Part shown: positions 28,608-63,734 of the stretch, piece after piece
Layout of the letters: each line of letters opens with the position of its first letter
Position numbering within the stretch: position 1 is the stretch's first letter
Source: Steroidobacteraceae bacterium
GTDB lineage: Bacteria; Pseudomonadota; Gammaproteobacteria; Steroidobacterales; Steroidobacteraceae
Length of the DNA stretch: 64,000 nucleotides
Reading direction: 5' to 3'
Assembly: GCA_035488895.1 (NCBI GenBank)
Contig: DATHKV010000145.1
Location: 36,472 to 100,471 of the forward strand
The notes under the pieces: generated by a model
Seen by the model: only the letters and a program-made list of their open reading frames with translations
Database searches by the model: none
Told to the model about the DNA's origin: nothing
Made by a program: the position numbers and the translations under genes

Positions 28608-29519
28608 CTATCGACTCGCCAACTGTTTTTTCATCTTGGCCTCAATATCTTTTTTTTGCATGAAATAGTCGACTTCTTGCCCAACCGTGTTGAGAGCTCG
28701 CAAGTAAGCCAAGTCAGCCGCCGTAATTGACTGGGATTTCTCGCGCGTGCAGGCCGACGCCATCAGGTCAAGAATGCTTGGCAGTTCGCCACAACCTTCA
28801 CCCAGGCGCACCTGCGACAGGGTCAGCATGGCGATGTAGTCTGAGATCGCACTGATTGGATACCCCAATACCTTCCTTCCATCGACTACAACCAATGTGA
28901 AGAGAATGAAACTGTGCACACCGTTAGAGCTTCGGTTGGCCCAAGTTACAATCAGCGGGGGAGCCCAAACGCTATCGAGCTGAACACCTCCGCCCGCGGC
29001 CTGAAGGCCTGTTACGTGCCACACCTGAATCGGGTGATCGAACGTTTTAAGCTTTTTAGTTTGGGACGACCAATGATATCCGAGTATTTCCGGGTTTTGA
29101 TCGACCGCCATATCAATAGCCCTCTGGGGCTCATTGGTGAAAATGACATAGACATTTGGCCTGCATGGATTTCTCTTCTCACGCGGAGTTTTGACTGCGG
29201 CGGCAATCGCTTCGACCCGCGCCGAAACATAATCCTCATACGCTGATGGCAATCCTAGTGTCTTTATGCAGACAGCTTCTTTCCAGCGTGACAACGTGCC
29301 CGTTCCGCTGGTTTTGGGTTTGCTATGCGAATCGATGAACGTCATCACATTGTCGCCGGCAACTTCGCTTGCGGTAGGTGGCCTCGGGGCAATCACGGTG
29401 ATTTCTGCCAAGTCCGGTGGTGGCGCGGCTGGTAATGAACTCGTCTGTGCCCAAGCCTTGCAATGGCCGAAGAGGCATACCGATGCAGCCAAGAGTGCAA
29501 TCGCGATTGCTTGTCTCAT
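28608..29519 (-). CDS. secreted protein, unrecognised family, subtype B (copy B1)
   Basis: GGAAGG precedes ATG 29519. Signal peptide ...CKAWAQ. Paralog of 60153..61130, sharing SRW..(K/G)..(V/I)C, C(R/K)(P/S)NV, VVD, DY(I/L)AMLT(L/M)S, LPSILDLM and DLA(Y/F)L(R/K)AL. Confidence 0.8.
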   Translation of the reverse strand: MRQAIAIALLAASVCLFGHCKAWAQTSSLPAAPPPDLAEITVIAPRPPTASEVAGDNVMTFIDSHSKPKTSGTGTLSRWKEAVCIKTLGLPSAYEDYVSARVEAIAAAVKTPREKRNPCRPNVYVIFTNEPQRAIDMAVDQNPEILGYHWSSQTKKLKTFDHPIQVWHVTGLQAAGGGVQLDSVWAPPLIVTWANRSSNGVHSFILFTLVVVDGRKVLGYPISAISDYIAMLTLSQVRLGEGCGELPSILDLMASACTREKSQSITAADLAYLRALNTVGQEVDYFMQKKDIEAKMKKQLASR

Positions 29520-29649: not shown

Positions 29650-30576
29650 CTAATTTTGCGACTTCGGAGCAATGTCCTTTAGCGCCGCTGTTTGCATTTG
29701 CGAAATCTGCATTACGCTGGTTTGTGAGGTGCTATAGAGAGCATGCAAAAGAGCCCTGTCCCACATGGACATTTCCGGGGGCCGCGACTGCCCCGAACTC
29801 TCAAATAGCCTCAGGATAGTAGGCACATCACCCGGTTGCTTCTCAAAATTTATCTGGGCGAGACCGACAAGCCCGATGTAGTCGGTAAGCTGGCCAAAGT
29901 TAATATTGCCGATCTTTGTGGAATCCACCACCACAATTACCGAGGAAATATTGCGGGTCGCCGTCACCTTCAAGCGAGTCGCGGCCTCCGGCGGGATGCG
30001 AACCCATGGGGCCTTTCCGGAGGTTTTTGCTCGAATCGAAGTCGCATCAAGCAAACCGATAAAAAACTGTCCGTCCACCCCAACGGTGCCGGCACTATAC
30101 CAGACGCGTATGGGTCGAGGTGTTTCGAGAAATCGCTTCACGGGTGGGCCAGATTCACCGTCGAATAGATCGACGTCACGGCGCCACCACTGTTTCAGCA
30201 GGAGCTCGGGGTCTGAAGTTACAATTACGTAGAGGTTCGGCTTGCATGTGTCGGCGCCGAGCGGAGCACCCGCGGATTTGGCAATTTCGGAAAGACGAGC
30301 AAGGACAAACTCGCCCTGTTCCTTACTCAGTCCGGCCACAAGGGGACAGACCTTGTCGTTCCAACGCCAGAGTGACTGGTCATAGTGGTTGGGTGGAACA
30401 ATCGCGCTTGAGACGAATTTATTAACCTCACGCTCGAGTTTGGCTCTGTCTCTTTGCGCCTGTACGGTGATTGTATCGATCGAATCAGCGCTAATCGAAT
30501 TGGCGAGACTTATGAGCACTGCGACGGTAGCGCATATCCAAAGGGAATGGCTAATTGCTGGTGATCGGACGTCCAT
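29650..30576 (-). CDS. secreted protein, unrecognised family, subtype A (copy A1)
   Basis: GGAGG precedes ATG 30576. Signal peptide ...LANSISA. Paralog of 61655..62578 and 62811..63734. Confidence 0.8.
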   Translation of the reverse strand: MDVRSPAISHSLWICATVAVLISLANSISADSIDTITVQAQRDRAKLEREVNKFVSSAIVPPNHYDQSLWRWNDKVCPLVAGLSKEQGEFVLARLSEIAKSAGAPLGADTCKPNLYVIVTSDPELLLKQWWRRDVDLFDGESGPPVKRFLETPRPIRVWYSAGTVGVDGQFFIGLLDATSIRAKTSGKAPWVRIPPEAATRLKVTATRNISSVIVVVDSTKIGNINFGQLTDYIGLVGLAQINFEKQPGDVPTILRLFESSGQSRPPEMSMWDRALLHALYSTSQTSVMQISQMQTAALKDIAPKSQN

Positions 30577-30948
30577 GACACCTCCGGCAAATACAAAACG
30601 ATCTGCCGCTTTTAGCATAGCGCGACTCGATCCCGGTGGCGACATTCACACTTGGTCTCTCATCCGGAAGGCGATGGAGGAACAGGGCAATCCCGCCCTT
30701 TTCTCCGTGTGTGCGAGAATCCGGCCATAGAAAGCCGGCGAGCCGATCGACATAGGAGTACATGGCAAATCTGCGGCGGGCGCGAAGGCACCAAAAGCCA
30801 AGACGGCCGGCTCGTAGTGTTACAGCGATCATGTGAGCAACAATATGAGGTGGCTTCGATTCAGTCGCTTGATGAAATGGAAGAGACGACTGTCACCGAC
30901 ATGGCGTTTCAACTAGAGTAAGAGGCCATTTGAGGATAGGGACGGTCC

Positions 30949-32307
30949 ATGTTTCGGCACGACCTGCGAATTGCCTTTCAAAGTATCCGACAGAATCCGT
31001 TCATCGCAGCTCTGATTGTCGCAGTGATTGCGGTCGGGATCGGCACCTCGGTGGTGGCAATTACGCTCTACCACTCGAAAGCGGGTAACCCGATCTGGTG
31101 GAAGAACGACGTTCTTTTTCGGGTGATGCTCGACAGTCGACCAGCGCCTCATGAAGCGGACGTGTCTCAGCATCCGGAATATCCGCCGTTTACGCTGATT
31201 TATCGTGACGCCGCGGCTCTTTACCAATCAAGGATTCCGACGCGTAGTGCATTGATGGTCGCAGCCTATGCGCCCGTCAGTAGTCCGAGCGCGATGAGCC
31301 GCCCTTTCAATCGGGCAGGTCGTTTAACGACGCGTGAATTTTTCTCAATGTTCGACGTGCCATTTCTCTATGGCCATGCTTGGTCGAAGAGCGACGATGA
31401 GGGTCCCTCTCAAGTTGCTGTCATCAGCCGTGCTTTGAGTGAACGACTATTTGGTGCCGGCGACAGTGTGGGCCGGACACTCGTCTTCAGCGGTCAGACC
31501 TTCCAAGTCGTCGGTGTCACCGATCGGTGGATGCCGCTGCCGCGCTTTTATGATGTCGGTCGCAGCTTCATCCCCTCCGATGACTTGTTCATTCCATTTC
31601 GCTGGGCCGACTCGCTCTCAACCTTGCACTTTCCCGGCTTTTGCGCTCGCACGCAGACTAGTGTGACCACGTTCAAGGAACTGGCGCCGTCGGAGTGCAT
31701 CTTCGTCGGCTTGTGGGTGGAACTCTCAAGCACGGCGCAGTTTCGGGAATACCGCAAATTTTTGGACAACTACGCTCGAGAACAGCAGCAGGCGAGACGC
31801 TTCGAGCGCCCATTAAACAATCGACTGGCGAACGTGTCTACCTGGCTGGTGATGAACGATGTCATTGGAAGCCAGACCAAGTTCCAGGTGGTTCTTGCGC
31901 TGGTATTCCTTGGCATTTGCATCCTCAACACCTTGGGTCTGTTACTCGCGAAATTTATGAGTCGCGCACCGCTCGTTGGGTTGCGCAGGGCATTGGGAGC
32001 CACCCGCGGGGATATCGTGCGGCAGCATCTAACGGAAGTCATGGTCTTGGGAGCCATCGGCGGGGCGATCGGCATTGGCCTCGCTATCGTCGGGCTGCGT
32101 CTGGTGCGGATCTATTTTTTCATGCAATCAAACCGGCCCGGTGATAATCCCGAGTTTGCGAGCGTGGCGCAATCACTGTCGCATTTGGATGGGCGAATGA
32201 TCCTCATCGCGGTTGGACTGTCATTGCTGGCCGGCTTGCTGGCAGGCGTCTATCCGGCGTGGCGGATCGGGCGAATGGCGCCGGCTACGTTCCTCAAGAT
32301 CCAATAG
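30949..32307 (+). CDS. ABC transporter permease, FtsX/MacB-type (single FtsX domain with large periplasmic loop)
   Basis: N-terminus LRIAFQSIRQNPFIAALIVAVIAVGIGTS. C-terminal FtsX region RRALGATRGDIVRQHL. Confidence 0.85.
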   Translation: MFRHDLRIAFQSIRQNPFIAALIVAVIAVGIGTSVVAITLYHSKAGNPIWWKNDVLFRVMLDSRPAPHEADVSQHPEYPPFTLIYRDAAALYQSRIPTRSALMVAAYAPVSSPSAMSRPFNRAGRLTTREFFSMFDVPFLYGHAWSKSDDEGPSQVAVISRALSERLFGAGDSVGRTLVFSGQTFQVVGVTDRWMPLPRFYDVGRSFIPSDDLFIPFRWADSLSTLHFPGFCARTQTSVTTFKELAPSECIFVGLWVELSSTAQFREYRKFLDNYAREQQQARRFERPLNNRLANVSTWLVMNDVIGSQTKFQVVLALVFLGICILNTLGLLLAKFMSRAPLVGLRRALGATRGDIVRQHLTEVMVLGAIGGAIGIGLAIVGLRLVRIYFFMQSNRPGDNPEFASVAQSLSHLDGRMILIAVGLSLLAGLLAGVYPAWRIGRMAPATFLKIQ

Positions 32308-32321
32308 CGGATCTGGAAACA

Positions 32322-33554
32322 GTGAGACTCAAGGCAGTTTTTAGTTCCCTATGGCAAAGTCCAATAGGCCCACTGCTGCTCGCAGCTCAAGTCGCACTGA
32401 GTATGGTGATTCTCGCCAATGTCGCGTACGTGGTTTCGATCCGTCTCGAGCATACAAGCCGGCCAACGGGCCTGGATCTGGAGAATATTTTCTGGATATC
32501 GAGCGAAGGCCACGGTCCCAGTTACAGTCAGCAAACCACAGTCCATTTTGATCTGGAGTATCTGAATTTGCTCCCTGGAGTGCTGGCGGCGTGCGCCGCC
32601 AGTTCAATTCCTCAGACTTTCGACGCCCAAGAAACGACGGTGTCCGGCGATCCGGAGTTCAAGGAGCGGCGTGATGTACTTCTGTACCAGATGACTGGGA
32701 GGGCTGTCGACACCCTTGGGCTGCGCCTGATTCAGGGCAGGGGGTATCTTAAAGACACCGTGGCGCCGGCGCCGTCGAGCGCGGACGCCGCAGGAACTCT
32801 CTTTGGCCAAGAAGTAGTCGTCACGGCAGCCTTGGCTGAAAAGCTCTTTGGCAGCAGCGAAGCTGCTATCGGCAAGTCTCTGCATTTCAGTATGGCGAAG
32901 GGCCGGTCCGCGGCCATCGTTGGGGTGGTCGAGCGCATGCAGGCGGCGCCGTTCTTCCTGCCTGGGACGAATTTCGTCAACGAAATCGTCTTGGTGCCGG
33001 CGGTGCCGGCCGGCCCCAGAGCGCTCTACCTGGTTCGCACCAAGCCGGGATTTCGTGAGCGGGTCATGAACCAAGTTGTCAAAGAGTTCGAGCCCCTGCA
33101 GCAGGACCGTTACGTCAATGCGGTGAGGTCACTCGCGGACACGGCATCGGAGGCACGCGCTTCAGACCGTGCGACCGCCGTTGTGCTGGCGATTTTGGCG
33201 TCTTTCGTGCTGGCCGTGACCATGTTGGGTTTGTTCGGATTCGCCGCGTTCGCTGTCACCAGCCGCACCAAAGAAATTGGAACGCGTCGGGCAATTGGCG
33301 CGACCAGGACCGATATCCTCAAGCAATTTCTGCTGGAGAACTGGCTCATTACCACCGCAGGCGGGATTGTCGGCTCCGTAATGACGCTCGCATTCGCGCT
33401 GCAACTGAGTCTGCTCTTGGAACTGCCGAGGCTTCCGTTTGTCTTTCTCGTCGGAACCATGGCGCTTGTCTGGACGGCTGGCTTGCTCGCTGCACTGCTG
33501 CCTGCATTGCGCGGCGCGAGTGTGCCGCCCGCGGTGGCCACGCGAGGTGCCTAA
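32322..33554 (+). CDS. second FtsX/MacB-type ABC permease
   Basis: ORF opens at 32259, overlapping the previous gene; GTG 32322 is the plausible start. FtsX motif RRAIGATRTDILKQFL. Four TM pattern. Confidence 0.8.
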   Translation: MRLKAVFSSLWQSPIGPLLLAAQVALSMVILANVAYVVSIRLEHTSRPTGLDLENIFWISSEGHGPSYSQQTTVHFDLEYLNLLPGVLAACAASSIPQTFDAQETTVSGDPEFKERRDVLLYQMTGRAVDTLGLRLIQGRGYLKDTVAPAPSSADAAGTLFGQEVVVTAALAEKLFGSSEAAIGKSLHFSMAKGRSAAIVGVVERMQAAPFFLPGTNFVNEIVLVPAVPAGPRALYLVRTKPGFRERVMNQVVKEFEPLQQDRYVNAVRSLADTASEARASDRATAVVLAILASFVLAVTMLGLFGFAAFAVTSRTKEIGTRRAIGATRTDILKQFLLENWLITTAGGIVGSVMTLAFALQLSLLLELPRLPFVFLVGTMALVWTAGLLAALLPALRGASVPPAVATRGA

Positions 33555-33570
33555 GGCGCGTCAATCTAGA

Positions 33571-34260
33571 TTACGCTGCTGATCGGTCGGTCTGATGATC
33601 CGTTGCGACCCGGCCATCCACCATGTGTACCGTTCTGTTAGCGCGAAATGCGAGTTCGTTGTTGTGCGTGACCATGAGAATGGTCGTACCCGCGGCGTTG
33701 ATCGATTGCAGCAGGTCCATGATTTGCGCAGTCATCGTGGTATCCAGGTTTCCGGTCGGTTCGTCGGCCAGGATTACCTGCGGGTTCCCGCCAATGGCTC
33801 GCGCGATGGCAGCACGTTGCTGTTGGCCTCCCGATAACTGCGCGGGGAAGTGCTTCGTGCGGGAGGTGAGGCCGACTTTTTCCAAGGATTCGGTGACCCG
33901 CTTGCGGCGCTCGGCAGCCGGCATGCGACGGTAGTGCAGCGGAGCGTCGACGTTGTCGTAGATGTTCAAGTTGGGAATCAGATTAAAGGCCTGAAAGACA
34001 AAGCCGATCTTGCGATTGCGGATATGGGAACGCTCATTGTCCGACAGCACTCTGACGTCTTCGCCCTCAAGTCGGTAGTCACCCGCTTCGAATTCCTCCA
34101 ATAATCCAGCCACATTCAAAAGAGTAGTTTTGCCTGAGCCGGAATGCCCCGTGATCGCGACAAACTCGCCCGCCTCGATCTTAAGGTCAAAATCTCGCAA
34201 GGCGTAAGTTTCGACGATGTCGGTGCGAAATATCTTGCTGACTGACTTCAGTTCGATCAT
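33571..34260 (-). CDS. ABC transporter ATP-binding protein (MacB/LolD-like)
   Basis: AGGAGG precedes ATG 34260. Walker [13 protein letters not shown], signature [14 protein letters not shown], Walker [12 protein letters not shown]. Confidence 0.9.
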
Positions 34261-34554
34261 GCCGCCTCCTTTGGCGGGGCAATCAGGACGAGCACATGGT
34301 GTCATTCATTGGAAACCGTGTCACAGCGTGCTCCTACGCCGAGACCGCTGTACAGGCCCTCAGGCTCATGGAACTATCGTCACCTCGGGCCACACAGACT
34401 TAGCTCGTGCGGCCTTCCTCTCATGCGTCTCCCTATGTGGGAGAGCGTAGTTCGGACGAATCACCATAGCGAAGATATCCTCCAATCCGAATGGGGCCGA
34501 AAACGTCGAGTTGATCGTCTTGCAGTAGGCGAACTTGAGCGCTGCGAAAATCCT

Positions 34555-57943: not shown

Positions 57944-58549
57944 ATGTCAAGTCAAGCAGGGACCGCGGCGGCGGTTTTGCCGAAACGTCAGCGCGGCAAG
58001 CAACGTGTCGCCGAACTGCTCGCCGCCGGCGCGGCCGTTTTCGCCGAGAAAGGCTATGCGGCCGCGACCATGACGGAAATTGCTGCGCGTGCCGAGGCGC
58101 CTATCGGCTCGTTGTATCAGTTCTTTCCCTCCAAGGAAGCACTCGCCGACACGTTGGTGCAAAGCTATATCGCGTTGCTCACCGCAGACTTGGAATCGCT
58201 CGAGGCTCAGGCACGGAATCTCTCCACCGCGGCCCTCATCGAGGGTCTCTTTGCCGTGCTGCGGGCTCACCCGCAGGAGCGTGCAGCGACATTGCCCTTA
58301 GCCGAAGCCCGAATGGATGAGCGCACGCGTCGCGAGACATTTCGCTATCTGCTGCGCAAGCGTATCGCCTTGATCTTGCGCGCACGCTCGCCGACACTCT
58401 CCGCGGAGCGCGCGCGGGACCGCGCAATCGTGCTGTTGCAGCTCATGAAGGCTGCAAGTGCGCTCAACGACGAGGAGAGCTTAAGCGGCCGTTCAACCGC
58501 GCTTCGGGAACTACAGTCCCTGGCCGCCCAATACCTGGAGCAAAGATGA
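57944..58549 (+). CDS. TetR/AcrR-family transcriptional regulator
   Basis: HTH GYAATTMTEIAARAEAPIGSLYQFFPSKEAL. Divergent from the isochorismatase operon. Confidence 0.85.
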   Translation: MSSQAGTAAAVLPKRQRGKQRVAELLAAGAAVFAEKGYAAATMTEIAARAEAPIGSLYQFFPSKEALADTLVQSYIALLTADLESLEAQARNLSTAALIEGLFAVLRAHPQERAATLPLAEARMDERTRRETFRYLLRKRIALILRARSPTLSAERARDRAIVLLQLMKAASALNDEESLSGRSTALRELQSLAAQYLEQR

Positions 58550-58759: not shown

Positions 58760-59377
58760 CTAGCGCCGCGGGTCCGTCCCTGTGAATGACTCGCATGAAA
58801 CGTTGGGATGCCAGTTCACGAACGCACCGTTGGGATTGTCCTTCCACGCCCAGACGTGCAGTGTGTAGAACGCCGGGAGCCCGAAGCGATTGGGAGCGTC
58901 GAACAAATGAAACAGTTGTCCCATGAGCTGCGGCGGATCACCCGGATGGTTCTTGTCCCACCCTTCGGCGAGAATCAGATAGTCAGCACCGGTCAGGCGC
59001 ACGCGCCCGTCTGATGTCGGCTCGTAAATCACAATCTGGGGATGATTGAGCTTCACTTCACCCTTGCTGACCAGGTCCATGTTGACATAGTGGAGTCCCA
59101 TCGCACCTACGCTATCGCCGCTCACGCAGCCGAACAGAAGCTGATACCCGTCCGCCTCAGCCACCTGCACATTCTGAAAGCGCTCGGTCGCGTCTCGGAC
59201 CTTCTTCAGAAGGGTTCTCGCCTGGCTCCTTTGGTCCGCAGTGAGTTCGGCATTTTGCTGCGCCTGCGAATGAGAGTGGGCATCTTGCGCCTGCGCGGGC
59301 AGCTGAGCCAAGCTCATGAGGGCGAGGGCGCTGGCGGGAAGATGCAATTGTTGAACTAATCGTCTGAGTCTCTTCAT
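58760..59377 (-). CDS. secreted protein, unknown function
   Basis: AAGGAGG precedes ATG 59377. Signal ...LAQLPAQAQ. His/Gln-rich linker followed by a globular domain. Confidence 0.6.
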   Translation of the reverse strand: MKRLRRLVQQLHLPASALALMSLAQLPAQAQDAHSHSQAQQNAELTADQRSQARTLLKKVRDATERFQNVQVAEADGYQLLFGCVSGDSVGAMGLHYVNMDLVSKGEVKLNHPQIVIYEPTSDGRVRLTGADYLILAEGWDKNHPGDPPQLMGQLFHLFDAPNRFGLPAFYTLHVWAWKDNPNGAFVNWHPNVSCESFTGTDPRR

Positions 59378-60152: not shown

Positions 60153-61130
60153 CTAAGGCAACTTGAACTGTCTCATCATATTGTCTTCGATCGCGGATCT
60201 CGAAGGCGACGGCCCCAGACCTGTGTTTTTGTAGTAAAGAGCCTTTAAAAAGGCTAGATCGCTGGCGGTAAGGGCAATAGGCTTCTCACGCGCGCCACAG
60301 CTTGTCGACATTAGATCCAAAATGCTCGGCAGCGGATCGCAATGATCGGGAGATTGTGCCACCGACATTGTGAGCATCGCTAAGTAATCGGCAATCGTCC
60401 CGACGGAGTACCCGACGACTCTCGTTGTGTCGACAACTAGGATGACAACCCCAATTCCACTGCCCGTTCCGCTAGCACCGCCGACACGCGTTCCCGTGGC
60501 ATTGCTTCCGGCGTAGTTTTGTTCGACCTGCGGCCAAACGGGTTGGACGCTAAACCCTACCAATGCCACGTCAGTACTCAATACAGCGGAGTCGCCACCT
60601 GTTACCAGAAACCAGCCCTGAATCGCGTGGTCGCTTTTGAACGCAATTAGATTCCTGCCACCGCCCGCATACCTATTGTGAAAGGCAGGCCCCGTCGCCC
60701 ATTTCACGACGGAATCCATTTTTTCCGAGGGGTTGCTCGTAAAAAGTATTTGCACATTGGATTTGCATTGTGGGTCCGATGCTACGGGTGCACCAACATA
60801 CGCGGCGAGCGCGCGAATTCGCGCCGTGACGAAGGCGTTGTATCCCGGGCTGAGCCCTTCAGTGAACGGACAAATGCTCTGCTTGCCTCCACGCCAACGT
60901 GCAGAGTTGCCCGTCGTCGTGGTATTCGCGTAGTGCGTTGTGGCGTGGTGCGAGATGAATGCATCCAGGCTGTTGCCCGCTAATTCCTGATCGGCAGGAG
61001 GGCTCGGCGCTTTGACGCTTACATCGCCGATTTCTGGTGTTTCGCCCGCACGAGGCGAGATATCAGCGCGCGCCGTCTCAGACAGTCCGAATATCACAAT
61101 AAGAAAGGGGAGAACGAGTTGAGTTCTCAT
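60153..61130 (-). CDS. secreted protein, unrecognised family, subtype B (copy B2)
   Basis: AGGAG precedes ATG 61130. Signal MRTQLVLPFLIVIFGLSETARA. Paralog of 28608..29519. Confidence 0.8.
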   Translation of the reverse strand: MRTQLVLPFLIVIFGLSETARADISPRAGETPEIGDVSVKAPSPPADQELAGNSLDAFISHHATTHYANTTTTGNSARWRGGKQSICPFTEGLSPGYNAFVTARIRALAAYVGAPVASDPQCKSNVQILFTSNPSEKMDSVVKWATGPAFHNRYAGGGRNLIAFKSDHAIQGWFLVTGGDSAVLSTDVALVGFSVQPVWPQVEQNYAGSNATGTRVGGASGTGSGIGVVILVVDTTRVVGYSVGTIADYLAMLTMSVAQSPDHCDPLPSILDLMSTSCGAREKPIALTASDLAFLKALYYKNTGLGPSPSRSAIEDNMMRQFKLP

Positions 61131-61251
61131 GGGTGATTTAACTCCTGTTGTCTGTTCGCATCCGCCAATCGCTGGTGTCCGTTTCAGCTGGTGACAACAT
61201 GATATGCCCATGTGTCGAAAACGGCATCTTATCCGCGGCGCGGAATTGGAC

Positions 61252-61296
61252 ACGAACGCTTCGTAATATTAACTTCGGGTGGCCAAATCATTAAAC
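61252..61296 (-). promoter_or_regulatory. conserved 45-nt upstream block (copy 1), putative promoter/operator of B2
   Basis: 38/45 nt identical (hand count) to 62627..62671. The minus strand reads GTTTAATGATTTGGCCACCCGAAGTTAATATTACGAAGCGTTCGT, with two TTAAT words 22 nt apart. Confidence 0.5.
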
Positions 61297-61489
61297 CTAT
61301 GCCGATACAGTTACTGCAGCGTCCCAATTCGACCTTCGCAAATAGCGATCCGCCTGTGGTGCGCACAATATGCACCAATGACCGCGATTACACGGTAGCC
61401 AAAGGAGGGGGCCCCGGAAAACAAATAAAGCGCTTCACCCGTGGTGCGCGCGACGATGTTTGATACGCGCCATTGCGTCGCGGCTAGCG

Positions 61490-61519
61490 AACAAGAAAGA
61501 GGGGGCCCGTGAGGCCCCC
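61490..61519 (-). terminator. rho-independent terminator downstream of A2
   Basis: Minus strand GGGGGCC-TCACG-GGCCCCC followed by TCTTTCTTGTT. Confidence 0.6.
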
Positions 61520-61654
61520 GAGAGTGACGGAACTGATTACTTACCGTTACGAGTGTTGTTGTCGTCAGTGTCGGTCTTGGAGCGGGGATGGGGACGAGTG
61601 AGGGATCGACGCGCCTGCGCGGATGTGCCTCGTGACTTCGCCAGCTGCTCGTGA

Positions 61655-62578
61655 TCAGGGCGTGAGATCGTTCACCACGGATGTCCTGATCTCGGCCAGC
61701 TGCATTTTGTCTTTATGGCTCGTGCGGTAAAGAGCTTTGAGGTAAGCTTGGTCCCATAAACTTAGACCCGCGGCGCGGCCCTTTTCTGAGGTCGAAAACA
61801 CGTTCAATATCGTGGGGGCGGCGCCTATCTTAGGGTCGGATCGAAGTTCTGCAAATCCAACCATCGCGATATACGCGGCAAGCTGCCCGAAGGTGACGCC
61901 GCTTTCCCTTACGCGTTGCGTGTCGACGATTACGACGACCGAGGTAAGGTCTCGCATCGAGCTAAATGCAATAGCGGAAGCCGCGCTCCCTGATCCAGAA
62001 CCGTCCGAGTTCACCCTAATTCCGAAATCATCATACAGTTCCGCGTTGTACCAAACGCGAACCGGGCTGGTCGAGCTGCGAAACCTGCGCACCAACGTGT
62101 AGTATCCATCTGTATACATTTCTGGGTGTTTCTTCTCGAGCCCCTTCAGCAGTTCACTCGGCTTCTCGGTCACGATGACGAAGAAGTTGGGTTTGCAGCG
62201 CTCGCGACCCAAAGGCGCGCCCGCGGCAAGTGCGATTCGCGACAAGCGAGCGAGGACGAATTCGCCTTCGTCGCGGGGCAATCCAGCGACCTGAGGGCAG
62301 ATTGTCGTCGGTTCTTCCCAACGCGCGAGGGAATCTCCGAAGCGTTGCATGGCAATGGCCGACACGAAGGTTCTCACTTGGCGTTCGAGTGACGCCCGCT
62401 GGGCTTCGACGGTAACCGTGTTGAGTTCCGTCTCAGATCGTTGCTCAGGGGGTTTGGCTGGCGGCTCTGCTGCAGCGGATGTAGCGAGCAATAATGCAAC
62501 CAGCGCCGCACGTCCTGGCGCGGGATAACTGCGGCGATATCTCGCAGACTTGTCGAACTGTGTCTCTGGCACTCGCAT
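61655..62578 (-). CDS. secreted protein, unrecognised family, subtype A (copy A2)
   Basis: ATG 62578 follows a G-rich RBS (alternative ATG 62599). Signal ...ALLLATSAAA. Paralog of A1/A3. Confidence 0.8.
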   Translation of the reverse strand: MRVPETQFDKSARYRRSYPAPGRAALVALLLATSAAAEPPAKPPEQRSETELNTVTVEAQRASLERQVRTFVSAIAMQRFGDSLARWEEPTTICPQVAGLPRDEGEFVLARLSRIALAAGAPLGRERCKPNFFVIVTEKPSELLKGLEKKHPEMYTDGYYTLVRRFRSSTSPVRVWYNAELYDDFGIRVNSDGSGSGSAASAIAFSSMRDLTSVVVIVDTQRVRESGVTFGQLAAYIAMVGFAELRSDPKIGAAPTILNVFSTSEKGRAAGLSLWDQAYLKALYRTSHKDKMQLAEIRTSVVNDLTP

Positions 62579-62626
62579 ACAATCCCCCCGCCCTCCCATG
62601 GCGATCAGCGATGCTCAGCGTACCAA

Positions 62627-62671
62627 ACGTACGCTTCGCCACATTAACTGGGGGTGGTCAAATCATTAAAC
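62627..62671 (-). promoter_or_regulatory. conserved 45-nt upstream block (copy 2), putative promoter/operator of A2
   Basis: Minus strand GTTTAATGATTTGACCACCCCCAGTTAATGTGGCGAAGCGTACGT. About 49 nt upstream of ATG 62578. Confidence 0.5.
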
Positions 62672-62810
62672 GCGCCGCTGCGATCGCGCCCAATCCCTGC
62701 ATAAATAGGCTTTTCGCGCATTTGACCCGCCAAATCAACCAGAGTAGAACTTAGCTCTTGAAACCGCTTGAAGACGGACTAGCGAAGGGTGCTGGTGTCG
62801 CGGAGGTGTC

Positions 62811-63734
62811 ATGGATGTCACGACGGTAGGGACACACCTTAGCTGTTGGATCGCAGCCGCATTACTTGTGCTCGCGAACATTTCTGGCGCCGCCAGAGCG
62901 GACTCGCTGGATCAGATCACCGTCCAGGCGCAGCGCGAGACATTGCGAAAACAAGTAGATCAATTCTTTCATTCAGCGATGCTGAAGCCCCTGTTTGACG
63001 AGTCACCGTTGCGCTGGGAAGACGCGGTTTGTCCTACAGTCGAGGGTATGATCCGACCGGCGGGAGAGTTCGTGTTGAGGCGTCTTTCCGAATTGGCGCG
63101 GGAATCGGGTGTTCCTTTAGCCAAGGACAATTGTAAACACCCGAATCTCTTCATCGTTGTCGCCAAAAATCCTGAGACTTTTTTAAAGCTATGGTGGCGT
63201 CGTCAGCCGAGAATGTACGACACGGCGCATGGCATTGCGCCGGTAAGGAGATTTATTGAAAAGTCGCGTCCCATCAGGGTCTGGTACAACATTGGATCGG
63301 GAGCTCTCTCAAACGAGATCTCGGGTTTACTCGCGGCGAGTGTAGATGCGGGGCTGGGAACAATAGACTACCCAATCGTTCGAGGGCCATCAACCGGCGC
63401 AAGCACTTTATTAATATTTCCCAAGGTGCGCCGCATTAGCACCGCACTCGTTGTAATCGATCCCGCGCAAGTCGCTGAACTTAGTATTGGACAATTTGCG
63501 GACTACATCGCAATGGTAAGCTTCGTCGAGATTAACCAAGATGCGGACCTCGGCGCGAATTCCACGATCCTCAATCTGCTCGCAGGTCCCAACGCCGAAG
63601 TGCCGCTCGAAATGACCCGTTGGGACAAAGCGTTGCTGCGAGCCTTATATACGTCGGAGCATGGGAATCGAATGCAAATGTCGCAGATGGAGACGAGGGC
63701 AATAAATATTCTGCAATCGAAGCCGTCCCCCTAG
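62811..63734 (+). CDS. secreted protein, unrecognised family, subtype A (copy A3)
   Basis: GGAGG precedes ATG 62811. Signal ...LANISGAARA. Plausible sigma-70 promoter TTGACC-17-TAGAAC at about 62732-62760. Confidence 0.8.
   Translation: MDVTTVGTHLSCWIAAALLVLANISGAARADSLDQITVQAQRETLRKQVDQFFHSAMLKPLFDESPLRWEDAVCPTVEGMIRPAGEFVLRRLSELARESGVPLAKDNCKHPNLFIVVAKNPETFLKLWWRRQPRMYDTAHGIAPVRRFIEKSRPIRVWYNIGSGALSNEISGLLAASVDAGLGTIDYPIVRGPSTGASTLLIFPKVRRISTALVVIDPAQVAELSIGQFADYIAMVSFVEINQDADLGANSTILNLLAGPNAEVPLEMTRWDKALLRALYTSEHGNRMQMSQMETRAINILQSKPSP

Follow-up and report, generated by a model that had tools for sequence, protein, structure and literature searches.

What kind of protein is encoded by the five related genes that lie within one 64,000-nucleotide (nt) stretch of a Steroidobacteraceae genome (contig DATHKV010000145.1, positions 36,472 to 100,471 of the forward strand), and did these genes arise by a recent expansion? 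The whole stretch is referred to here as the window, and the five genes are named A1, A2, A3, B1 and B2. They belong, as profile searches indicate, to a large, never-annotated bacterial family that has the N-terminal logic of TonB-dependent receptors, with the plug and barrel of those receptors apparently replaced by a soluble domain of unknown fold, called X below. The composite reading that we consider probable is that of a barrel-less, periplasmic, TonB-engaging sensor or binding protein. An initial annotation of this DNA had proposed a recent, diversifying expansion of a secreted family in duplicated A-B cassettes, and that story is largely wrong.

Five related genes in the window

The five genes, numbered by window position, are the following.

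60153..61130, minus strand: B2, 325 amino acids, with a signal peptide, a TonB-box-like motif and a B-type X domain with two Cys pairs; a called gene in locus L002
61655..62578, minus strand: A2, 307 amino acids, with a signal peptide, a Pro/Glu linker, a TonB-box-like motif and an A-type X domain
62811..63734, plus strand: A3, 307 amino acids, divergent from A2
29650..30576, minus strand: A1, 308 amino acids, a paralog in pair 1
28608..29519, minus strand: B1, 303 amino acids, a paralog in pair 1

The open reading frames (ORFs) of B2, A2 and A3 that were annotated at these positions are present, and their starts agree with public gene calls on matching soil-type metagenome contigs. When the paralogs were compared by BLASTP with all 151 window ORFs of at least 100 amino acids, the mutually related proteins were exactly these five, which bears out the annotated number of homologous copies. 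The A-type proteins share 35-41% identity with one another (E 1e-48 to 6e-78), B1 and B2 share 32% (E 6e-43) and A-B pairs share about 25% (E 1e-13 to 1e-18), and the next-best window match to any of the five had an E value above 0.7. About 270 residues are homologous in the five-protein alignment and 25 columns, including two Cys, are invariant. The similarity is therefore not driven by low-complexity or signal-peptide sequence, a concern that the initial annotation had itself raised. The sequence motifs that it listed are seen in the alignment, with the exception that A2 has SPVRVWY instead of RP(I/V)RVWY. The A gene stands upstream of the B gene on the minus strand in both pairs, as described, with intergenic gaps of 130 nt (A1-B1) and 524 nt (A2-B2).

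A profile built from the five proteins gave 779 matches in a database clustered at 90% identity, and a 40-sequence profile gave 3,691 clusters at 50% identity, 1,211 of them with E<=1e-30; most are about 300 amino acids long. Members carry only the names "hypothetical" or "uncharacterized" in their source records and none has a recorded Pfam domain. No Pfam (E<=1) or NCBIfam model matches any of the five window proteins, PDB sequence searches with two profiles found no relative, and no paper describing this family was found in the literature searched. A check for a family annotation with a known housekeeping role likewise found none.

The family is distributed in Steroidobacteraceae, Caulobacterales and Sphingomonadales. 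The nearest genomes are metagenome-assembled genomes (MAGs) of Steroidobacteraceae, in which A1 orthologs are 81-84% identical, and remoter members (28-33% identity) occur in cultured Caulobacterales and Hyphomonas. Members were also found on plasmids of Sphingomonas, Novosphingobium and Gluconobacter. Cultured, genetically tractable carriers include Brevundimonas diminuta ATCC 11568, Caulobacter ginsengisoli DSM 18695 and Sphingomonas species. The genome scan was made with the A-type alignment, and B-type loci are under-sampled in the resulting locus set.

Exported proteins with an N-terminal TonB box

The proteins of the family, of about 30 kDa, are Sec-exported and disulfide-bonded, and their X is an alpha/beta domain of about 250 residues without a detectable relative of known structure. 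All five window proteins have a Sec-type signal peptide with an AxA-like end site (ISA, AAA, ARA, AWA and ARA). The mature part contains two Cys in the A-type and four in the B-type, and two Cys are invariant across 110 members. These signal peptides and even Cys counts uphold the annotated multi-copy exported family in two subtypes, and the pattern fits folding in an oxidizing, extracytoplasmic compartment. The second Cys pair of the B-type (B1 243/257, B2 264/278) flanks the LPSILDLM motif and is lacking in the A-type.

Directly after the signal peptide, the motif [DE]x[IVL]x[VI]x[AG]x[RK] is found family-wide. The window copies are as follows.

61002..61031, minus strand: B2 motif IGDVSVKAPS, residues 34-43
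62396..62425, minus strand: A2 motif LNTVTVEAQR, residues 52-61
62907..62936, plus strand: A3 motif LDQITVQAQR, residues 33-42
30451..30480, minus strand: A1 motif IDTITVQAQR, residues 33-42
29382..29411, minus strand: B1 motif LAEITVIAPR, residues 37-46

Caulobacterales versions of the motif read EIVVTGVR and DVVVEGRR. A position-specific scoring matrix built from the 10-residue family motif was run against all ORFs of 80 or more amino acids in 83 loci and the window. The eight best matches outside the family had scores of 17.1-18.4, against a family median of 18.7, and all were near the N-termini of large ORFs (for example PLQEIVVTGSRIAAPN, SLTEIIVTAQKRE and IAEVVVTARRR). All five of the non-family matches checked against Pfam were receptors with Plug and barrel domains, and the motif was 14-17 residues ahead of the Plug. 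An STN-type receptor encoded just outside the window has PLEELVVTGTH at the same place. Within the family, the motif lies no more than 60 residues upstream of X in 110 of the 144 N-terminally complete representatives, and most of the others have recognizable weaker versions. By sequence and by position, the N-terminal motif is a TonB box.

AlphaFold2 models of A1 (predicted local distance difference test, pLDDT, 77.9; predicted template modeling score, pTM, 0.74) and B2 (pLDDT 71.3; pTM 0.74) are alike. Each is predicted to have a helix followed by an alpha/beta domain with four main strands and two C-terminal helices, and each contains one long loop modeled at low confidence (residues 168-203 in A1 and 183-222 in B2). 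Foldseek searches with the A1 model against PDB and BFVD and with the B2 model against PDB gave no significant match (best PDB E 0.014, template modeling score, TM, <=0.19). Matches to NAD kinase (TM 0.13-0.15) were rejected as noise. The family-invariant residues in the 110-member alignment are R71, W72, C77, C111, W159, D218, Y233, L255, W272, D273, L277 and Y281 (A1 numbering).

STN fusions, FecR linkage and an M56 fusion

An N-terminal STN domain was detected in 12 of the 150 family representatives (best E 1.7e-13), where it is followed by a Pro/Ala/Ser linker, the motif and X; STN is absent from all five window proteins by Pfam. The B-type member P0241 also carries STN, so both the A-type and the B-type occur with this domain. 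The four STN members examined are all encoded directly downstream of FecR. A complete, contiguous row of genes for an extracytoplasmic function (ECF) sigma factor, FecR (DUF4880+FecR) and STN-X is present in L087/L088 and on the P0261 contig. The L084 and L085 contigs end within the C-terminal region of FecR, and in L085 a plain member, that is, one with the TonB box and X alone, comes next after the one with STN. The place downstream of an ECF sigma/FecR pair is the one in which a TonB-dependent transducer normally sits.

The representative P0219 has a BlaR1-type M56 membrane domain (HEACH motif) and two X domains, which are B-type and begin after the TonB-box position, and has no TonB box. 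Because P0219 joins M56 to X in this way, X behaves, at the level of domain arrangement, like a portable extracytoplasmic module for sensing or binding, with the TonB box and STN as N-terminal modules that can be separated from it. Sel1 repeats were found C-terminally in four representatives.

Comparison with known systems

The closest parallel is with the TonB-dependent receptors and transducers of the FecA/FpvA type (Pfam STN PF07660, Plug PF07715 and TonB_dep_Rec_b-barrel PF00593), in which a TonB box of the same sequence type likewise comes after the signal peptide, in the same location. The optional N-terminal STN of the family, its Pro/Ala/Ser linker before the TonB box and the location of its genes after those for an ECF sigma factor and FecR also resemble FecA/FpvA-type transducers. 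Unlike these receptors, the family has neither a Plug nor a 22-stranded beta-barrel and has instead the soluble alpha/beta domain with one or two disulfides. Neither Plug (PF07715) nor barrel (PF00593) was found by Pfam in the five proteins or the 150 representatives, and Foldseek gave no match to receptor structures. Without plug and barrel, the family proteins cannot act as transporters of the outer membrane.

VreA (PA0674) of the Pseudomonas aeruginosa PUMA3/Vre system is the only precedent for a barrel-less cell-surface-signaling receptor found in the literature searched on barrel-less or soluble TonB-box proteins; work on hiuABC proved to have no bearing on the question. It is a barrel-less, mostly soluble, STN-bearing component of an ECF-sigma/anti-sigma module (PMC2729926). 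The C-terminal half of VreA has been modeled as resembling a TonB/TolA C-terminal domain, its proposed "TonB box" lies inside the STN fold, and vreA is the first gene in its operon (PMC2729926). The family described here differs from VreA in that a canonical TonB box follows STN, the X domain is unrelated and the X gene comes after FecR; moreover, the five window copies are without STN. No TonB_C match was found by Pfam in the five proteins or the 150 representatives, and no TonB/TolA-like fold was matched by Foldseek.

The architecture of P0219 recalls the M56 sensor-transducers of the BlaR1/MecR1 type, since P0219 has two X domains where BlaR1 has its extracytoplasmic sensor domain, and by this analogy supports a sensor role for X. 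In contrast to BlaR1/MecR1, the window proteins lack both an M56 domain and a membrane anchor, and P0219 is a single fusion.

A proposed role at the TonB system

The modular plan of the family is that of TonB-dependent receptors, with a plain form (TonB box-X), to which the five window proteins belong, and a transducer form (STN-TonB box-X). We propose that the proteins would stay in the periplasm. Release into the medium or into outer membrane vesicles, as in the initial annotation, is not what the features of the family suggest; a periplasmic location is indicated by the TonB box at the N-terminus, by the fusions to STN and by the linkage to FecR. Receptor TonB boxes pair with TonB's C-terminal domain, and the motif of the family may, by analogy, do the same. 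X would bind a ligand or a partner. In the STN forms, the sensing event at X could be passed on to FecR and the ECF sigma factor. The plain forms encoded in the window would be non-signaling, TonB-tethered binding or adaptor proteins, whose specificity may be set by the variable loop, including the Gly-rich loop of B2.

Several points weigh against this proposal. A motif of 7-10 residues can converge. In the AlphaFold2 models, the motif of A1 is placed, at low confidence, at the start of a long helix (pLDDT about 60) and that of B2 forms short strands. The motif is degenerate in one subfamily, which is encoded after a receptor of about 1,070 amino acids. A soluble periplasmic protein gives TonB no obvious anchor to pull against. 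The window contains no gene for TonB, ExbBD, FecR or a TonB-dependent receptor and none of the five copies has STN, so that what the plain forms do is extrapolated from about 8% of the family. The gene neighborhoods of plain members vary greatly and hold no clue to function.

A first alternative is a reading in which the motif only resembles a TonB box, being instead, for example, a structural strand, a helix cap or a sorting signal, and the proteins are periplasmic binding proteins or enzymes of an ordinary kind, perhaps with a degenerate zincin-like scaffold, and have no link to TonB. The lack of TonB-system genes in the window and the contexts of plain members, which are unrelated to transport, agree with it, and the invariant residues R71, W72, R157, W159, D218, D232, Y233, W272, D273 and Y281 could provide a site for binding or catalysis. 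A scaffold like that of the metzincins is compatible with the order of elements in the models (strand, helix, strand, strand, strand, helix, helix) and with the weak Foldseek matches. Metzincins are enriched among the weak matches of the B2 model, namely myroilysin, astacin, matrix metalloproteinases and snapalysin (TM 0.55 on the target), at non-significant E values of 0.8-3, and the best viral match of the A1 model is a putative metalloprotease (E 0.13). None of these B2 metzincin matches has E below 0.8, the TM on the B2 query is at most 0.28 and the A1 model gives no such PDB signal. The 110-member alignment has no HExxH and no conserved His; X, if related to metzincins at all, is dead as a zinc peptidase. 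The enrichment among the B2 model's weak matches is a lead, not a finding. Faint matches of the N-terminal third of X to Pfam DUF2927 (PF11150, function unknown) occur in 5 of the 150 representatives (best E 0.0065). The match of P0219 residues 448-512 to profile positions 12-80 scored 16.6 bits, compared with a gathering threshold of 26.2 bits; no representative reaches the gathering score, the five window proteins have no match at E<=1, and no literature on DUF2927/PF11150 was found, so that even a real relationship would say nothing of function.

Other observations speak against a reading unrelated to TonB. The motif is kept family-wide where a receptor TonB box sits, after the signal peptide or after STN, and its best matches outside the family are all at receptor N-termini. 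The STN-motif-X and sigma-FecR-X orders copy those of TonB-dependent transducers exactly, and the motif is dropped where an M56 membrane domain anchors X. We therefore regard the reading unrelated to TonB as unlikely and retain that of a TonB-engaging periplasmic protein.

Age of the paralogs and selection

A second alternative is the one first offered for this locus, a recently expanding, diversifying family that is secreted or carried in outer membrane vesicles and encoded in duplicated A-B cassettes. Five copies in 64 kb, together with arrays of up to five copies elsewhere, speak for expansion. Synonymous divergence (dS) between the paralogs, however, is saturated (A1/A3 4.4; B1/B2 3.4; A1/A2 not computable), and four of the five have nearer relatives in other genomes or metagenomes than in the window, with identities of up to 92% for A1, 94% for B2, 76% for A3 and 77% for A2. 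For B1, no relative in the 76-94% range was found among the matches listed. The five genes are, on this evidence, ancient paralogs, and the duplications are old, since synonymous sites between the paralogs are saturated. A1 is no closer to A2 than to A3 by BLASTP, and, with this saturation, the comparisons speak neither for nor against a segmental duplication of an A-B pair.

The relatively recent duplication had been argued from a 19-nt ribosome-binding-site and start context shared by A1 and A3.

62801..62819, plus strand: 19-nt context CGGAGGTGTCATGGAYGTC, A3 copy, identical to the A1 copy
30568..30586, minus strand: 19-nt context CGGAGGTGTCATGGAYGTC, A1 copy, identical to the A3 copy

The identity is confirmed; the 19-mer occurs exactly twice, at the A1 and A3 starts, with a chance expectation of 0. 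The flanking DNA cannot be aligned between A1 and A3, so that the 19-mer is an isolated island of ribosome-binding site, start and "MDV", and an MDV start is common to many orthologs. Residues 1-42 of A3 (62811-62936; signal peptide and TonB box) are 95% identical to those of P0037 and the remainder is only 41-56% identical, whereas P0031, the true ortholog of A3, is 59% identical over residues 1-42 and 73-90% elsewhere. This pattern looks like an exchange of a 5' module between paralog lineages. The 19-mer is better explained by conserved initiation signals, by 5'-end exchange between paralogs or by both than by recent duplication.

Orthologs are under purifying selection, with dN/dS ratios of 0.27-0.41 for A1, 0.17-0.21 for A3 and 0.18-0.20 for B2. 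The values in the A1 lineage are fairly high for bacterial genes and there is one hypervariable loop, which together with the signs of 5'-end exchange and the shared start context is what can be said for diversification. The ratios are nevertheless below 1 throughout. In the A1 ortholog group, variability is concentrated at residues 1-10, in the n-region of the signal peptide, and at residues 181-200, in the low-confidence loop, and the TonB-box motif and the core are conserved. The Gly/Ser/Thr-rich insertion that B2 was noted to have over B1 is real, B1 having an 8-residue gap.

60450..60509, minus strand: B2 Gly/Ser/Thr-rich loop GSNATGTRVGGASGTGSGIG, residues 208-227, conserved in B2 orthologs and absent from B1

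This segment falls in the variable, low-pLDDT loop of the family, and its pattern TGTRVGGxSGxGSGIG is kept in all B2 orthologs examined.

Gene context and regulation

The description of the A-B pairs as a cassette fares no better. In the A1 orthologs of L005 and L006, the A1 gene alone is common with the window, and B2 orthologs are singletons in unrelated contexts. Tandem arrays elsewhere contain up to five copies, all of them A-type, and A-B was never seen; A-then-B adjacency is not conserved. Between A2 and B2 lies the following element.

61501..61519, minus strand: terminator-like hairpin GGGGGCCTCACGGGCCCCC with a T-rich tail, about 135 nt past the A2 stop

The hairpin is strong and GC-rich, with eight pairs, seven of them G-C, and leaves an upstream region of about 370 nt to B2. 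The presence of a terminator-like hairpin between the genes suggests that A2 and B2 are separate transcription units. With saturated paralog dS, dN/dS below 1, a conserved B2 insertion, A-B adjacency that is not kept elsewhere, the terminator-like hairpin and the periplasmic character suggested by TonB box, STN and FecR, a recent and diversifying expansion of secreted cassettes is improbable.

The weakest alternative, to which we give hardly any credence, is that of TonB-dependent bacteriocin-like toxins, which like colicin M, pesticin and the S-type pyocins would use an N-terminal TonB box for import into competitor cells and whose paralog arrays would stem from an arms race: the TonB box at the extreme mature N-terminus, the multiple copies with one variable loop and the B-type motif (EITVIAPRPP, DVSVKAPSPP), which resembles the colicin M N-terminus (ETLTVHAPSP), fit it, but the arrays have no small immunity-like genes interspersed, with a Sec signal peptide the protein would end up in the periplasm of its own producer, Foldseek found no PDB fold match to colicin M, pesticin or pyocin structures, links to STN, FecR and M56 make no sense for a toxin, and orthologs are stable and under purifying selection.

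Two copies of a repeat were found in the upstream regions of the second group of genes.

61252..61296: 45-nt direct repeat, copy 1, 122-166 nt upstream of the B2 start
62627..62671: 45-nt direct repeat, copy 2, 49-93 nt upstream of A2, between the divergent genes A2 and A3

The copies are 84% identical and read GTTTAATGATTTGRCCACCC..AGTTAAT.T..CGAAGCGT.CGT on the minus strand. The repeat was not found upstream of A1 or B1, nor at other loci except on same-strain contigs, and may be a shared operator or promoter that co-regulates B2 and A2/A3. In the B2 leader, no RNA fold was better than those of shuffled sequences (z = 0.16). An Rfam scan of the long B2 leader and the intergenic regions gave only one sub-threshold match, inside A2. 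This match, to the L31 ribosomal-protein leader (61721-61792, plus strand; 24.8 bits, gathering threshold 33.2 bits), is antisense in the A2 coding region and was judged to be due to chance.

All-against-all clustering of neighboring ORFs revealed no general conserved neighbor of plain members; it gave only antisense-ORF artifacts, one subfamily linked to a receptor and the tig/clpP synteny of Caulobacterales. The genes tig (trigger factor), clpP, clpX and lon are accompanied by one to five family genes in tandem in MAGs of Caulobacter, Brevundimonas, Terricaulis and related Alphaproteobacteria. In most of the loci linked to tig/clpP (L052, L055-L059, L063, L067, L070, L071, L076-L078 and L080), which come from Caulobacterales and from alphaproteobacterial MAGs without classification, the family genes are placed between tig and clpP; in L052, L056, L058, L063 and L078 they follow clpP and precede clpX. 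The subfamily with the degenerate TonB-box motif is found in L044, L046, L048, L049, L051 and L079. In the five of these loci that cover the region, its gene follows, on the same strand, those for a LytTR response regulator, for an uncharacterized protein of about 370 amino acids, a TonB-dependent receptor of about 1,070 amino acids and a small ORF.

The immediate neighbors of B2 encode a 205-amino-acid signal-peptide protein without a Pfam match (58760-59377, minus strand) and a TetR-family regulator (57944-58549, plus strand). A MacB-type ABC system, with two FtsX/MacB_PCD permeases (plus strand) and an ABC ATPase (minus strand), is the divergent neighbor of A1 at 30949-34305, followed further out by genes for PadR and an S26 signal peptidase. 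None of the MacB-type ABC, PadR or S26 signal peptidase genes is kept next to A1 orthologs. The window copies have no adjacent ECF sigma or FecR gene. The nearest ECF sigma/FecR module, a complete cell-surface-signaling cluster, lies outside the window to its right (L001 5704-11738), 4-10 kb from A3 and on the other strand, and comprises an ECF sigma factor, FecR, an STN-type TonB-dependent receptor and an S9 peptidase.

Significance

TonB boxes are regarded as a hallmark of outer-membrane receptors and of the bacteriocins that parasitize them. The family described here merits a domain model, as every member is now annotated "hypothetical protein". Beyond this, we put forward tentatively, at less than even odds, that it represents a new class of barrel-less TonB clients, in which soluble periplasmic sensors work on the TonB/ExbBD motor, the STN forms drive FecR-type anti-sigma factors and the plain forms make up a repertoire of TonB-docked binding or adaptor proteins. 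If this is true, regulation of the cell-surface-signaling type could report periplasmic as well as cell-surface signals, and the set of proteins that use the TonB motor would be wider by a family of thousands of sequence clusters. ECF-sigma signaling would then have, besides VreA, a second and far more widespread type of barrel-less receptor.

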